Source: Torpedo marmorata (lineage: Eukaryota). From it: a stretch of DNA of 64,000 nt. The DNA lies in the NCBI GenBank assembly GCA_977017645.1, contig OZ360247.1, positions 34,162,001 to 34,226,000 of the forward strand, in the 5' to 3' direction. The position numbers and the translations under genes are program-made. This document shows, piece after piece, positions 41,945 through 58,500 of this stretch (position 1 is the stretch's first letter; every line of letters starts with the position of its first letter). The notes below the pieces were generated by a model. It was not told the DNA's origin, made no database searches, and worked only from the letters and a program-made list of their open reading frames with translations.

Positions 41945-42447
41945 TTAGTTTCTTCATTTGATGCACGTGCTCCAATCCTAGGTCTTGTCTCTTCATTTGA
42001 TGCATGTTCTCCAATCTTGGGTCCAGACTTTTCATTTGATGCATGTGCTCCAATCCAAGGACCTGTCTCTTCATTTGATGCATGTGCTCCAATCCTTGGA
42101 CCTGTCTCTTCATTTGATGCATGTGCTCCAATCCAAGGACCTGTCTCTTCATTTGATGCATGTGCTCCAATCCAAGGACCTGTCTCTTCATTTGATGCCT
42201 GTGCTCCAATCCAAGGACCTGTCTCTTCATTTGATGCATGTGCTCCAATCCAAGGACCTGTCTCTTCATTTGATGCATGTGCTCCAATCCAAGGACCTGT
42301 CTCTTCATTTGATGCATGTGCTCCAATCCTAGGACCTGTCTCTTCATTTGATGCATGTGCTCCCACTCCTAGGTTTTGTCTCTCAATTTGATGCATGTGC
42401 TTCCAATCCTGGTTCTAGTGTCATCCTTTGATGCATGTGCTTCCACT
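41945..42447. repeat. 39-bp minisatellite, about 13 units
   Basis: Unit tctcttcatttgatgcatgtgctccaatccaaggacctg; central units homogeneous, terminal units degenerate. Confidence 0.95.
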
Positions 42448-46639: not shown

Positions 46640-47477
46640 GGCACTTGACAGGTCACAGCTGGAGTACACTACATTGATGTTCACTGTACTGCTTGAAGGA
46701 TGTGGTAGCATCAAGCAGGATGTAGAGGAGATTTAGAGGATACAGCTGTCAGATCAGGAGAACTATTGCTTAGTGGAGAGACTGGCTTGCCTGCAATGTT
46801 TTCTCCATAACAAGTAAGGTTGAGAGAAAGTCTGACTGAAGATCACAAAATTATGACCAATCTTTTTTTAAAATATTTTATTTAAAATTTTTAATCACAC
46901 GATAGTACATGTTTACTAACTTCAAAATGATCAAAATACATGTGATATATGTTCACCCTCCCCTCCCTCCCTTCCCCCTCCCTAACCCACCCACCCCCAC
47001 TACTCTAATAAAAAAAAAAGAGAAAATATAAAAAAAAATAGATAGTGGAGAATGTCAATCTAAAAGAAAACAACTATACATTAATTTTATTGTGGAACAC
47101 AGGTCGCCAATCAGAATTTTATTGTGTAACACAGGTTCGCCAATCAGAATGACCAATCTTAATAGGGCAAACAGAAAGGACCAATTTTCCCTTGGCAGAG
47201 ATGTCAACAACTAGAATTGTTAATTGGTAGAAGGACAAGATGGGAGTTGAGGAAGATTTTTTTTTCACCTGATGAGTTGTAGCAATCTGGAACTCATTGC
47301 CTTAAAGGATGGTGAAGACAGAAACCCTCATGAACAAAAAAATCTCCTGATGTCTTCTAATTCTGCAGACTAAGTGCTGGGATCTGGGAGTAATCTCTTT
47401 ATACAATTTTGACTAGCATGATCAAATTGGGCTGAATAGCCTTCTGCTGTTCCATAAATTTTGAGAATTCAATGATT
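46640..47477 (+). mobile_element. Old CR1/HER1 LINE 3' fragment interrupted by an L1 3' end
   Basis: Decayed similarity to 54500-55060; tail gggctgaatagccttctgctgttc. Confidence 0.65.
46865..47148 (-). mobile_element. L1-clade 3'UTR insertion
   Basis: Reverse complement is homologous to 40070-40300 (ttttagattgacattctcc...aaataaaatatttt). 12-bp TSD atgaccaatctt at 46853-46864 and 47149-47160. Confidence 0.85.
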
Positions 47478-48161: not shown

Positions 48162-48530
48162 CAGTGGTTTTCAAACTGCCCCTCTAAACTCACATTCCAC
48201 CTTAAGCAATGCCTATGCCATAAGTGCTCTGTGATTGGTAAGGGATTGCTTAAGGTGGTATGTGAGTGGGAAGGGAAGGCTGAGAACCACTGCTCTAGAC
48301 CCAATTGTTACTGAAATATTTTGCTTGAGAAAAATTGTCATTGGCCCATTTCCTTTGGAGTTATGAAACCGTGCACATAACGAGTCAATTAGGTACGATT
48401 AAAACAGTGGTTTTCAAACTTTTTCTTTCCACTCACATACCACCTTAAACAATCCCTTAATAATCACAGATTGGCATAGGGATTGCTTAAGGTGGAATGT
48501 GAGTTTAGGGGGGTAGTTTGAAAACCACTG
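48162..48530. mobile_element. hAT/Charlie-type non-autonomous DNA transposon, composite structure
   Basis: Terminal inverted repeats CAGTGGTTTTCAAACT and a perfect 8-bp TSD atttactg (48154-48161, 48531-48538). Contains two internal TIR-bounded palindromic units. Confidence 0.92.
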
Positions 48531-52167: not shown

Positions 52168-53500
52168 TTAGAACCATAGAACGCTACAGCACCACTGACC
52201 TGCTCCCATTCCATAACCCTCCAGACATCTCCCATCCATGTATCTATCCAATTTATTCTTAAAACACAAGATCAAGCCCGCATTCACCACATCAGATGGC
52301 AGCTCATTCCACACTCCCACCACTCTCTGAGTGAAGAACTTCCCCCTAATGTTCCCCCTAAACCTTTCCCCTTTCAGCTTAAAACTATGACCCCTCGTAT
52401 TTATCTCCCCCAATCTAAGTGGAAAGAGCCTACTCGCATCCACTCTGTCTATACCTCTCATAATCTTGTAAACCTCTATCAAATCTCCCCTCATTCTTCT
52501 TCGCTCCAAGGAATAAAGTCCTAACCTGTTTAATCTTTCCCTGTAACTCAACTCCTGAAGACCCGGCAACATCCTAGTAAATCTTCTCTGCACTCTTTCA
52601 ATCTTATTGATATTCCTGTAGTTAGGCGACCAGAACTGCACACAATTTTCCAAATTTAGCCTCACCAATGTCTTAAACAACCAACATAACATCCCAACTC
52701 CTATACTCAATACTTTGCTTTATAAAGGCTAAGATGCCTAAAGCTTTCTTTACAACCCTGTCCACCTGTGACGCCACCTTCAGGGAACAATGTATCTGTA
52801 TTCCCAGATCTCTCTGCTCCTCCACACTCCTCAGTGCCCTATCATTTACTGTGTATGTCCTACCTTGGTTTGCCCTTCCAAAATGCATCACCTCACACTT
52901 GTCTGCATTAAACTCCATCTGCCATTTTTTGGCCCATTCTCCCAGTTGGTCCAGATCCCTCTGCAAGTTTTGAAAATCTTCCTCGCTGTCCACAACGCCT
53001 CCTATCTTTGTGTCATCAGCAAACTTGCTGATCCAATTTACCACATTATCATCCAGATCATTGATATAGACAACAAACAACAATGGTCCCAACACAGATC
53101 CCTGAGGCACAGCACTAGTCACAGGCCTTCAGTCTGAGAAGCAACCATCCACTACCACTCTCTGTTTTCTCCTTCACAGCCAATTTCGAATCCAGTTTAC
53201 TACCTCTCCATGGATACCCAGTGTCATAACCTTCTAAATAACCTCCCATGTAGGACCTTGTCAAAGGCTTTGCTAAGGTCCATGTAGACAACATCCACAG
53301 CCTTTCCTTCATCTACTTTCCTGGTAACCTCCTCGAAAAACTCTACGTTTCGTTAAAAATGACCTACCACGCACAAAGCCATGCTGACTGTCCAAATACC
53401 TATATATCCTATCTCTCAGAACTCCTTCTAATAATTTACCTACTACTGACGTCAGGCTCACCGGCCTATAATTACCTGGTTTATTTTTGAAGCCTTTTTT
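52168..53500 (-). mobile_element. CR1/HER1 LINE ORF2 (reverse transcriptase) fragment
   Basis: PGNYRPVSLTS, QHGF, VPQGSVLGPLLF, SKFADDTK, WQMEFN and RRRMRGDLIEVYK, across several frameshifts. Confidence 0.95.
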
Positions 53501-54003
53501 TAATTGCTCATCATAAATATCTGACGACTTCATACCCATAACTTTTCTTAATTAAGCTCAATCAGTAACTATAATGGGAAGATATTACAGTTATAAAAAG
53601 GAAGATTTTCCTTAAGGCTGGATTACTTTGGAATGTTCCGTGCCATTGTGAATCGGTAACATGCTGCAACAGAGGTCAGAGGCCTTTTTTGATCCCTGGC
53701 AAAGTGACTAACTGATCCCTCCAATGCAATAATGTAGAGCCACTAACCAAAGACAAGGCAATGCCATTCAGGATAGAAACATGGAGTATTGGCCTGTTGA
53801 ACAAGAGCAACATCCCAAGATGTGCAGGTGTAACAGAGTTAAAAATGTGTTTTAATAATTTTTATTCTCAATTTTGTAATTGTTAATTTTATCTCAATGA
53901 GTCACTTGTAATTATTGCCATTTTAATAATGTTTCCGGTGGGAATGAGTTTGGCGGTACACACCTTGTGCACCTCCTAAGCCCCTTCCTTCCTGTTCCCC
54001 ATA

Positions 54004-55580
54004 CTGCTTGCTACCTTGCTTAGGGTAAGTGTGGGGGAACCTTGCTGCTGGGTTATTTTAATATTTTCTTTGGAAAATGAATTGGTTATTTTATCAATCT
54101 CAATGTATATTGTTCATTGCTAATATTATTATGTTAATCATTAATGTAGGCTTTATGAACGTTTTATCTAACTTGTGTTGAGGCACCATTACCATGTGTT
54201 GATCATGTGACCTGAGATTTCATAGTGTAAATTCTGTTATTTTGCATGCTCAGGAGCAAAGGGGCAGAAAAGGAAGAAAACCCAGAAGACAATGGTTGTA
54301 TTATTTTGTCTTCTGGTACATAATTCCCTGAAAGTTGAGTCACACGTAGATAGGGTGGTGAAGAAAGCATTTGGTATGTTGGCCTTCATAAATCAGAGTA
54401 TTGAATATTAGATTAGATTAGATTAGATACACTTTATTGTCATTGTACCAGTTCAAAACAAGCCAATGAGAATATAGGAGTTGGGATGTCATGTTGAAGT
54501 TGTATAAGGCATTAGTGAGGCCAAATTTGGAATATTGTGTGCAGTTTTGGTCGCCGAATTATAGGAAGGATATAAACAGAATATAGAGAGTGAAGAGGAG
54601 ATTTACAAGAATGTTGCCTTGGTTTCTGGGTTTGAGTTACAGGGAAAGGTTGAACAGGCTGGGACTTTATTCCCTGGAGCGTAGAAGGTTGAGGGGTGAT
54701 TTGATAGAGGTATTTAAAATTATGAAGGGGACAGATAGAGTCAATGTGGACAGGCTTTTTCCATTGAGAGTGGGGAAGATTCAAACAAGAGGGCATGGAT
54801 TGAGATTGAAGGGGGAAAAGTTTAGAGGAAACAAGAGGGGGAATTTCTTCACTCAGAGGGTGGTGGGAGTGTGGAATGAGCTTCCGGCCGAAGTGGTAGA
54901 TGCAGGTTCAATTTTAATGTTTAAGGAAAAGTTGGATAGGTATATGGATGAGAGAGGTGTGGAGGGTTATGGGCCGGGTGCGGGTCAGTGGGACTAGGTG
55001 GGAGAAGGTGTTCGGCATGGACTAGAAGGGCCGAACTGGCCTGTTTCTGTGCTGTAAGTGTTATATGGTTATATAGGTACAGAATTTCCTTGTTAATTGT
55101 ATGATTTTGGCTGGTTAGTTTTTCTATGCAGTTTTCAACTTTCCCACCGGGTGCCACTGTTTTCAATTTGTATATATAGTTTTTTATATAGTTGAAAAGA
55201 TTTTAAAATGCAAAATGTTTTCCTGGGCAAACCTTAAAAGCTCTCGGCTAAAACCGTGTACACTGAGTTGAGTACATATTGAAATGTTAAAATACAGTAT
55301 CTGTGTGTAGTTGAGGAAAAGAATGAATGAGATATATTCTGCTTGCTACCTTTCTTAGGGAGCAAAGGGGCAGAAAAGGAAGAAAACCCAGAAGATAATG
55401 GTTGTATTATTTTATCTTCTAAAGGGAGCAAATAAATGCTGGAAAACAATTCCGTGAGTCATCTCTTTTTCTACGCGCTATGCAAACCCGATACACAGAG
55501 AAACTAAAATAATGCTTTCTCTTGTTTTACAGGAACAGAAGGTATTCTTATGAAGAGGGGAAGAAAGACCATGTGGATTA
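54004..55580 (+). other. Unannotated spliced transcription unit (lncRNA, small ORF or relic gene)
   Basis: GT-AG introns at 54025-54253 (gtaagt...tgctcag; junction supported by the joined copy at 55339-55420) and 55454-55530 (gtgagt...ctttctcttgttttacag). Confidence 0.55.
54315..55076 (+). mobile_element. CR1/HER1 LINE 3' fragment with a small nested LINE tail (54409-54469)
   Basis: VHNSLKVESHVDRVVKKAFG...RRRLRGDLIEVFK...FFTQRVVGVWNELP. ggtaca is repeated at both ends. The nested (TCTAA)n-tailed insert has a gaatat duplication at 54403-54408 and 54470-54475. Confidence 0.93.
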
Positions 55581-58500
55581 ATGCATGTTAAAAGGAAAAT
55601 AGCCAATATTTAATTCCAGTGACAAAAAATGACTTGAGATTTACCTCTTACTTGTGTGGTTAACTTTTTTATGGTCAGCAATACCAAAGACCAGGAGGTT
55701 TTAGTGCATAACAACATAAGCAGCATGCATCTCTTCTTGAATTTTTAACAGCTCTCATGTGTCACCCTTTCTCTTTGTACTGCCTAAAGCAGATCAAGTT
55801 TCCTTCCATTCAGTCATTCAGCACCACCCTGCTCCTGCCCCGTCCAAAGAACAAGTGGGACTTTTTATTTTTGTAAAACATTTTTTAAACCACCCCTGAC
55901 TGTTATCCTTGGTGTCTGTCCAAGCAATCAATTCTTTATGCAGGGGTGCTTGTACTAATGCTGCTATGCAAGATGTTAAATTAAACTGACTGGAAGTGAG
56001 AACGATTAATTTACAGATACAGTGGTTTATTTTACCACCTCTTTTAATATATTCTGAAAAGATTATGGCATGAAACAGGCAGCATGAGATCACCTTCCAT
56101 TTCCTTAAATTTGTTTACAGTGTCTCCAGTTGGTGTGTATAACGACTTGTTAATATAATAAGTCAAGACAGCACGTTAGTTCCACAAAGAAAGAATATCC
56201 ATTGGATTCTCTTTGATGAAAGCCTTGTATTTTGTAATTTTGCAATTTTTTTTTCTTCAAAATTTTTAACCAATAGTTAACAAGAACAAATTTGATGTCA
56301 TTCTATGCTTGAATTTTGTTAACAATAACATATCACTACCATACAAAATCTTGATGGAGCCAACAGATAAATAGAAATAACAGAGGAAAGCAAAACTCAG
56401 ATATAGCACCCGAAGATGAATTATGTGGCCTTGTCTCTGGTTCACTTGCACAAGCAGGACTTCAGATTAAATCCAATATAATTCCAACTCTTTGACTTTC
56501 AAAATAGCAAGTTGTTTCTGAAATACAAATGAAATCTGCTTCTTCTTTTCATTGTAAAGGAACAATGATTGGGATCCTTTCGAGGAACATCTAATGCTGC
56601 AATCTATGGTAAATATCCCAGTAGACGCTTGGACCCAGAAGATCTGCCTCAGGCAATATTGTCACCTGAGATCCCTGGCTTGTTTAAAAGGCTATTACCT
56701 GGTGGTTACACAGCAATGGATAGTTGCTGATGGATCAATAAAGGTCTCCATCCAAACAATCAATTCCTCAATTTACAAATTCAAGTGAGGATTATTCAAG
56801 TCAATACATACTGAAGTACTGAAGTGCATAAATTTGAAGTGGAGCCAATAAGCTCTCCTTCATAATACAAAATGTTCATTGAAGCAAACAAGACTACAGT
56901 TTAATGAATTCTTATTGTATTTTATGCATGCAATGTAGAGTGAAGAATGTCCCTATTCAGACTGCATGGGATGTTAATTCTGATTTCCTGATTGTAACCA
57001 CACTTAGTTTGGTAGATTGAACATAAAATGATCCAACAGATATGTTTGCAACCACAAACATTGCACATTGTTAGAAAGTCTGCATTTAAAAATCACAATT
57101 ATATTGCTTTGCGGGAACCAAGAACTGTAATTTTAATTCAATCCATCAAATAAACTTTTTAAAGTTTCAACATGCATGTGCTTCTAATTTTATCAACATT
57201 CTACAAACATCCAAACTCACAATGGGGCTTTGTAACTCCAGAGTAACTCCAGACTGGAGTAAATGCTACTGGAGTCTACAGGCTCTGCCCCAGAGAAAAA
57301 CAGACTGTTCCCGTAATTGTTTCAGCTCTGGAGTGAATTTGGAATTGTGCAAATGGGGATTCTGGAGTGATTCCCAAACAGCCTCATTTTTTGAGTGGAT
57401 GCCTCAAACAGGCAAAAGGAATGCCAGTGTAATAATATTACTACAATTGAATCTCTGTTGATTATCTGTAACTGTACTTTGAAGCTGCAAAGTTAAACTG
57501 CTTGGCTTTAGTTCACTGTACAGTAAAACAACTTGGCCTTAAATTAGGTGATCTGAGGTTTGAATTAAAAAATATAAGCCCAGGGCAATTCACTGTGACG
57601 TCATTTCTTTTCTGAGACTACACATAGTATAATTAAAGAGAGCAATGATTACTGTCCGCTGATGGATAGATTAATTCATGTTGTCGGAGGACTCCTACAA
57701 CCAAGTCATCTCCGTATCATCAGCCCAACTCACATTTGAAGTATATGCAAAATAAATAGCTAAGGAAAGCTACTGGCACACAGGACACTATATTCCAATG
57801 GGACTGATGGTTTGGGAGTTGATTGTAGAAAACGGTAGAGATGCAGACAGATACTGCAAAGTTCAATCCAGTGGCCCTGTGTTCACATCCAATCACAGTA
57901 AGCAATCAAAATGAATTTAATAAATTTGTGAAGTGGCGTTGGACGAAAGTGAGTTGGAATGTGCAATAATGATTTACTCATATGCTTCAGTGAAGGGATT
58001 TATTCTGTCAAGTCCACACACGATTCTGGGTCCACACTGTGATGTGGAGTCTGAGGGCTGGCTAAAATGGCTCAATGGTGATAATAAGTATGGTGGCATC
58101 TTCTCAGAGCAAATAGATAACTAATAAATGTTAACTTCCACATAACAAGAACATCTAGATGACTTTAAACAAAAATCAAGCTCAGGGACTCTCTAGTTAT
58201 AAATAAATGGATGAATACATTTTGTAATAGTAGACGTGTGCTTCTAATCAATGTCCATCGAATTCTTTTTCCCTTACATAGGTTTTGCCTTTCATTATAA
58301 ATCTGGTTTCTAGTGTTGCTTACATCATCAAAAGTGAGAGAAATCTACCAATTCTCTTTACCAAAAAATATCTACAGCAAAGTATAACAACACTTTTCTG
58401 CTTAAAACATAGTATATGCAGATCTGAAAACACACAAGGTACATTTTCATAAATTTATGTTAGTATCTCTTCGTGAAAAGCAATCATAATTCAGATGAAC

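Follow-up and report, generated by a model that had tools for sequence, protein, structure and literature searches.

Judged from its sequence, an intron-free copy of two exon-like segments, A and B, in the genome of Torpedo marmorata is most likely a rare trace of RNA rewriting genes, a spliced form having been copied back next to its source. The duplication of A and B with its exact splice-type junction is a real and statistically solid feature of the window, i.e. of the whole stretch of 64,000 nucleotides that was analysed. It probably represents a one-off scar, left in a transcript that is non-coding or unrecognised.

Layout of the intron-bearing and the joined copy

The first copy begins with segment A1 (54004-54024, plus strand), the 3' end of a pyrimidine-rich exon-like segment, and its match to the second copy possibly reaches 54001 at the cost of one extra mismatch. 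Directly after A1, GTAAGT at 54025 opens a GT-AG intron-like interval of 229 nt (54025-54253, plus strand), which is present in copy 1 only. A pyrimidine-rich stretch ending in CAG precedes B1 (54254-54314, plus strand), an exon-like segment of 61 nt with two substitutions in comparison to its counterpart B2. The second copy, A2B2 (55339-55420, plus strand), consists of A2 (55339-55359) and B2 (55360-55420), which are joined without an intron. The recurrence of A and B as a joined stretch of 82 nt with three substitutions (54018/55353, 54290/55396 and 54308/55414), as put forward in the original prediction, agrees with the sequence and the coordinates. The same orientation and the downstream position of the copy are also borne out by a spacing of 1335 nt for A and 1106 nt for B, and the gap between B1 and A2 amounts to 1,024 nt. 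The copies have diverged by 3.7% (3/82; 95% CI 0.8-10%). All three differences show G or C in copy 1 and A or T in copy 2, which is a weak asymmetry (two-sided p 0.25).

Neither poly(A) nor a TSD was found around A2B2, as had been claimed before, and only a CT dinucleotide is common to both ends. The joined 41-mer occurs a single time in the window at up to three mismatches and in 0 of 100 shuffles. For A2, the sole match in the window with fewer than six mismatches is A1; the next best has six. A second copy of the 229-nt interval was not found within the 64-kb window, and a terminal inverted repeat is absent from the interval (8/25 terminal matches). The upstream region, the intron, segment X (see below), segment C, the 79-nt intron behind C and the downstream region showed no mutual similarity beyond that of shuffles.

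Splice sites and exactness of the junction

All splice-site scores given here were obtained with matrices of approximate frequencies, which were checked only on two genuine Dlx sites (5.2 and 7.7). The donor of the 229-nt interval scored 10.4 bits, a strength reached by 7 of the 3,391 GT sites of the window, and the acceptor scored 8.0 bits (equally strong: 81/3,655 AG sites). When random 229-nt stretches of the window were put into AB (n = 125,297), 1,376 of them (1.1%) were GT..AG-compatible and 34 had both sites with at least 5 bits; sites of the observed strength did not occur (0/125,297). Three placements of a 229-nt removal recreate the copied junction, one of them with GT..AG ends, and the GG overlap comprises 2 nt. 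A 230-nt removal has a longer overlap of 3 nt (AGG), yet it yields a junction which is one G shorter than that of the copy. That the junction corresponds to the 229-nt splice product, despite the longer microhomology available for 230 nt, favours an RNA template over DNA end-joining.

A window-wide scan for split repeats gave 25 pairs, of which 17 were distinct and three GT-AG-compatible. According to an assignment by reading the pair coordinates against the repeat matches of the window, the 17 distinct pairs comprise six from a 39-nt array, nine from dispersed repeat copies, one AT-rich pair of 18+18 nt, and A/B. The other two GT-AG-compatible pairs, which belong to these nine, are artefacts, in which the junction slides between separate copies of one SINE, and A/B is thus the only case in unique sequence in the window.

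A itself resembles an acceptor, a property that was absent from the original prediction. As a 3' splice site, A2 reaches 8.4 bits (equally strong: 69/3,655 AG sites) and A1 6.1 bits, and A2 outscores even the acceptor before B1 (8.4 versus 8.0 bits). A2|B2C reads as a normal intron end followed by a 95-nt exon. As A2 is a good acceptor by itself, the contiguous form could be ancestral. The pyrimidine fraction of the 30 nt upstream is 0.80 for A1 and 0.27 for A2; since the pyrimidine run goes on upstream of A1 and not of A2, A looks native at 54004. The G-to-T difference at 55353 in A2 lifts the acceptor score from 6.1 to 8.4 bits, and due to this strengthening the copy may now serve as the start of a new exon.

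As predicted, the copy runs into an exon-like continuation, segment C (55421-55453, plus strand), which ends at GTGAGT at 55454 (donor 4.4 bits). C is either the remainder of exon B or the next exon, and a possible acceptor of 6.6 bits is located before 55425. An intron-like GT-AG segment of 79 nt follows (55454-55532, plus strand), the acceptor of which reaches 11.2 bits and is matched in strength by only 10 of 3,655 AG sites. The presence of this segment suggests that C and the downstream sequence are native genomic sequence and not cDNA. A 10-mer found at the A|B junction (55357) and again where C starts (55423) was discarded, as repeated 10-mers occur in 24 of 549 tiles of 115 nt. Further downstream, an open frame of 76 codons (56558-56785, plus strand) is preceded by a weak acceptor (56560) and followed by a strong donor (56785). 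It is possibly a further exon of the A/B/C transcript; a homologue search and Pfam gave no match for this frame.

LINE fragment and segment X between the copies

Most of the space between the copies is filled by the 3' end of a 5'-truncated LINE (54315-55075, plus strand, i.e. the strand of A-B), which we take to be CR1-like/HER1-like and which was not part of the original prediction. The LINE begins on the first base past the homology of B1 and B2 (54315) and is flanked on both sides by GGTACA (54315-54320 and 55076-55081). By our own estimate, the chance of a LINE within 3 nt of one of the four boundaries is about 1 in 1,000. Only three copies of this LINE type are present in the window. One of them (52192-52708) is 78.5% identical over 522 nt, and a part upstream in that copy matches Pfam RVT_1 (E 8.9e-14). 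The 3' tail of the LINE is also common to the SINEs of the window (26 of 29 nt with a SINE tail). Such a tail shared by a LINE and tRNA-type SINEs is expected for the elasmobranch HE1/HER1 pair, which is listed for sharks and rays in the available text of PMC3747384. The LINE frame contains one stop and no frameshift in 204 codons. This fits a young element with a divergence of about 5% or less under assumed mutation parameters, an estimate that overlaps the age of the copies (0.8-10%).

An insert of 61 nt starting with TTAGA repeats (54409-54469) is nested in the LINE between GAATAT direct repeats. The LINE fragments at 52171-53560 (minus strand) and 54315-55075 (plus strand) form a long inverted repeat at a distance of about 1.5-2 kb, with A1-intron-B1 between them. 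From its arrangement, this pair of fragments facing away from each other could favour breakage or RNA pairing.

The LINE is followed by X (55082-55336, no strand assigned), an AT-rich segment of about 255 nt that is unique in the window and showed no similarity to the adjoining segments or to any other part of the window. The pentamer TTCTG at 54311-54315 and 55337-55341 brackets LINE and X, with a chance probability of about 2%. If 54316-55336 (1,021 nt) is taken out, a head-to-tail arrangement of A-intron-B and A-B remains, which share CT(G), and no extra substitution is needed. X may be the intron that originally followed B, or it may be filler of foreign origin. B1 together with the flank before the LINE forms a weak donor of 3.4 bits (0.7% of positions), so that X could be a native intron, at the price of a fourth substitution at 54315/55421. 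If X is foreign, the GGTACA repeat or the position of the LINE must be a coincidence (each about 1 in 1,000, own estimate). Four features meet at the 3' end of B1, namely the end of homology, the LINE junction with GGTACA, the weak donor and TTCTG. No single history fits all of them, and at least one must therefore be coincidental.

Genomic setting and host transcript

Two convergent homeobox genes are located in the window (Pfam Homeodomain). One is encoded on the plus strand (1398-1580 and 2776-3081) and the other on the minus strand (about 17804-17500, 16773-16619 and 13566-13300), both with a Homeodomain match. The first exon of the minus-strand Dlx gene is 97% identical to a protein of Hypanus sabinus named DLX-6-like, 82% identical to DLX-6 of Callorhinchus and 65% identical to Dlx4a of the coelacanth. 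By these identities, the window belongs to an elasmobranch (shark or ray). From sequence motifs we take the convergent pair to be Dlx3/Dlx4; the database name is DLX-6-like. The A/B feature lies approximately 36 kb upstream of the minus-strand Dlx gene, on the opposite strand. TAC4 is presumably the neighbour upstream of Dlx4, and a six-frame motif scan for tachykinin-type F-x-G-L-M gave no credible match.

Twelve frame segments around both copies (both strands of 53401-54332, the plus strand of 55081-57182 and the minus strand of 55081-56282) were compared to Pfam, and nothing was obtained below E 0.1. One frame of 55331-55453 and the same frame over 55322-55600 gave no matches in a homologue search, the third frame of the copy had no match in Pfam or Atlas, and the frame starting at 55330 had none in Pfam; with pieces of only 30-90 residues, these protein searches are weak as negatives. 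A search of Rfam resulted in 0 matches. Given the lack of any protein or RNA family match, the host, provided that the locus is transcribed, is a non-coding or unrecognised transcript. The exon starts were also considered as collagen-like, but this reading was dropped, as the Gly periodicity does not go on. An Inr-like motif at 53999-54005 was likewise not taken as evidence of a start site, as such motifs are present at 1.3% of positions.

Some other features of the window should be mentioned. A perfect TGACGTCA (CRE-like) is situated 25 nt before a TATA-like stretch (57596-57635, plus strand), and on this sequence basis the region could be the promoter of a downstream plus-strand gene. A 39-nt minisatellite (41951-42441) with 12.5 copies and 90% matches has long open frames on both strands, and in one minus-strand frame the 13-residue repeat unit ends with Lys-Arg. 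Pfam gave repeat-type scores only for these frames (DUF2527 with 27.2 bits versus a cut-off of 25, with no single stretch passing), and they are probably non-coding. A small element with internal repeats and inverted ends (48162-48530) presumably resembles a non-autonomous DNA transposon. A recent tandem duplication of 32 nt (47083-47150, 94% matches) occurred within a repeat remnant. Two N gaps (22371-22749 and 31654-31906) indicate that the assembly is not finished, and a 90-nt near-duplicate beside the first gap (22774-22952) may be a local mis-assembly.

Proposed origin of the copy

The 82-nt copy was probably synthesised on the spliced RNA of its own locus near a break at the 3' end of B, which gave rise to the duplication. 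From the observed duplication, the exact junction, the strong splice sites and the LINE we infer transcription of the locus, the break and the order of events. The ancestral plus-strand transcript would have contained exon A, the 229-nt intron, exon B, C and the 79-nt intron. After a germ-line break or nick at or just past the 3' end of B, the downstream DNA end would have paired with the spliced RNA, and a reverse-transcribing polymerase would have extended this end through B, across the A|B junction and 21-24 nt further. This polymerase might have come from a LINE, or it might have been one that acts in repair, e.g. Pol zeta. The LINE next to B1 is of similar age, which makes a LINE enzyme a candidate and not a finding. 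The new end would then have been attached close to where B ends, through end-joining at the CT(G) match of 2-3 nt, so that source and copy would stand in tandem. Had it paired with exon A upstream instead, the intron would have been lost. X and the fragment of the LINE would have been placed at the join in the same event or soon after. In a sub-variant of this course, X would be the native second intron, and the copy would also span a B|C splice.

Copy 1 is favoured as the source by its pyrimidine context, the strength of its splice sites without inverted repeats and, as a weak argument, the differences from G/C to A/T. The lack of poly(A) and TSD fits priming by homology more than ordinary retroposition. 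The single clean junction, the fact that no host gene was found and the stronger acceptor of A2 count against an RNA template. The RNA-derived junction of the original prediction is a plausible and the most economical reading, which gains support from the splice sites, the junction register and the pyrimidine context. The LINE next to B1 makes the history more complicated. The description of the locus as a frozen intermediate of intron loss was overstated, as the source intron is still present and the product is a duplication. The A/B copy is more aptly described as an alternative (aberrant) result of a process of the intron-loss kind. Back-splicing was rejected as an explanation of the B|A join, as no AG precedes A.

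It is rather unlikely that a single germ-line event by one LINE ribonucleoprotein made the whole structure. In such an event, the LINE would prime at a nick in exon BC and reverse-transcribe the spliced RNA of its own locus in cis. The enzyme would then jump to another RNA ending in the LINE's own 3' end, and source, LINE, filler and intron-free copy would be left in a row.

Alternative histories

Apart from synthesis on the locus's own spliced RNA, an ancestral contiguous form must be weighed, in which A served as the acceptor of an exon BC of 95 nt and the upstream 82-nt duplicate gained a 229-nt intron-like insertion, either by intron transposition through reverse splicing or from an introner-type element. 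This history would agree with the A2 acceptor of 8.4 bits, which is followed by a purine-rich exon-like stretch and the GTGAGT donor, and with an insertion point in a protosplice-like AG|G context; furthermore, DNA duplications of short stretches occur far more often than RNA-templated ones. We consider it unlikely nevertheless. Recent intron gain is rare in vertebrates, splice sites as strong were found in 0 of 125,297 random inserts, and the 229-nt interval has no terminal inverted repeats and an overlap of only 2 nt (GG). Moreover, the insertion would leave a 1-nt exon behind the acceptor, and the pyrimidine run extends upstream of A1, not of A2. For fungi and algae, the accessible part of PMC3488318 documents intron transposition as well as introners. 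Improbable is also a small non-autonomous relative of the tyrosine-recombinase retroelements of Ngaro/PAT type with split direct repeats, which was later split at B1|A2 by LINE and X, or another multi-copy element occurring in spliced and unspliced forms. The order A1..B1..A2B2 is that of Ngaro, poly(A) and TSD are missing, and without 54316-55336, B1 adjoins A2 with CT(G), CT being present at both outer ends as well. However, A has only 21 nt versus 73-381 nt in the compared elements, and the 229-nt internal part contains no gag, RT or recombinase frame (Pfam, E 0.1). The adjacency of B1 and A2, which are now 1,024 nt apart, requires 54316-55336 as a later insertion; in addition, the strong GT-AG sites are left unexplained, the repeats differ by 3.7% and there is a single copy within 64 kb.

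A history on the DNA level only, in which A-intron-B (311 nt) was duplicated in tandem and the second copy then lost its intron exactly through end-joining, is quite improbable, as the second rare event must land exactly on both splice sites and the neighbouring register has the longer AGG overlap with a different junction. In its favour, the CT(G) found at either end of the unit is what microhomology-mediated duplication typically leaves, and a GG overlap of 2 nt is present at the junction. MMEJ has already been proposed for intron loss, a hypothesis cited in the available part of PMC12065846. Very unlikely is a newer upstream copy, for which the LINE reverse transcriptase would have switched from LINE RNA to unspliced A-intron-B RNA of this locus or of a paralogue. 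Sense-orientation chimeras of 5' cellular RNA and 3' LINE are documented for LINE-1 (PMC13174262, available text), and such a switch would account for the zero-gap junction B1|LINE. It requires an intron-bearing source, which the local copy, being free of the intron, is not; moreover, GGTACA flanks only the LINE and not a chimera, and the composition of A1 runs into its upstream flank. That transcript sequence was patched into the scaffold during assembly is extremely unlikely: the window does contain N gaps and a duplicated stretch beside the first of them, but the nearest gap is more than 22 kb away, the copy sits in sequence that has its own unspliced intron, and 3/82 differences exceed the usual alleles of one individual. 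Histories outside those listed are together improbable.

Comparison with known systems

The following comparisons refer to the available parts of the cited papers. In human cells, spliced mRNA templates the repair of breaks (RT-DSBR), and intron deletions accumulate upstream of the break (PMC12065846). This is the polarity that the mechanism proposed for A/B requires. The A/B locus resembles RT-DSBR in the exact splice junction at the source locus, in the lack of poly(A) and TSD, and in the position of the intron upstream of the inferred break. In RT-DSBR, however, the intron is removed in place and somatically, and according to the same excerpt the human whole-intron deletions depend on Pol zeta and not on LINE-1. 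At the A/B locus, the intron is kept (54025-54253), the product is a duplication of presumably germ-line origin (genome assembly), and a LINE is found at the join. As the intron remains, the locus is not a whole-intron deletion. In the cDNA-recombination model of intron loss (PMC3488318, in the part available), a spliced copy likewise engages its own gene. In that model, both sides have to pair and the intron is lost, whereas only one side was apparently paired in the case of A/B.

Class 2 templated sequence insertions, among whose templates are spliced cDNAs (PMC5110952, available text), are also short, germ-line patches of probable RNA origin with short microhomology and without TSD or poly(A). 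The 5' end of A2B2 carries marks of end-joining, namely the CT(G) overlap or an imperfect match of five of six positions. In contrast to the distant donors of class 2 insertions, the donor of A/B is situated about 1 kb upstream, and the patch runs into the apparently native C. With processed pseudogenes and retrocopies, A2B2 shares the exact removal of the intron and the intron-free copying of exons (PMC3554589, in its available sections). Unlike these, it has neither poly(A) nor TSD, comprises only 82 nt and lies next to its parent (1,024 nt gap); ordinary retrocopies, as stated there, land far from the parent.

In the LINE-1/mRNA chimeras of PMC13174262, as far as the excerpt covers them, host exon-like sequence abuts the LINE in sense orientation, as it does here, and template switching was proposed. 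There, spliced exons are located 5' of the LINE in one TSD-flanked insertion; at the A/B locus, the spliced copy lies 3' of the LINE and the unspliced form 5'. Ngaro elements have the order A1-[ORFs]-B1A2B2 (PMC8547959 and 10.1101/2021.08.05.455354, available parts). The order A1..B1..A2B2 and the missing poly(A) are common to Ngaro/PAT and the A/B locus, but the repeats of the latter are much shorter, there are no ORFs, B1 and A2 are not adjacent, and the internal part is a GT-AG intron. Unlike introner or DNA-transposon introns, the 229-nt interval has no TIR (8/25) and no TSD, only the GG overlap. In the main texts of mostly openly accessible papers, no earlier case of a spliced copy next to the locus it came from was found; PMC8071448 proved not to be relevant.

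Significance

Intron loss wipes out its own evidence, and the evolutionary contribution of RNA-templated break repair to it is stated as open in the available texts of PMC12065846 and PMC3488318. In a half-resolved product with an intron-bearing source and a spliced copy, template, polarity and join are all visible. Such a product also offers a signature to search for, namely a short exon-junction copy that lies on the same strand no more than a few kb from its source and has no poly(A); this signature can be counted in any assembly without an outgroup. The biological effect of this single case in a probably non-coding transcript is likely small in itself. If the whole structure did arise in a single event by one LINE ribonucleoprotein, it would represent a class of cis self-retroduplications that accompany LINE insertion and that could be recognised across a genome by local junction copies whose join holds a LINE. 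In that case, the copied junction, which forms a new 3' splice site, would be a route to new exons, and the locus would show directly for the germ line that spliced RNA pairs with the broken ends of its own gene.
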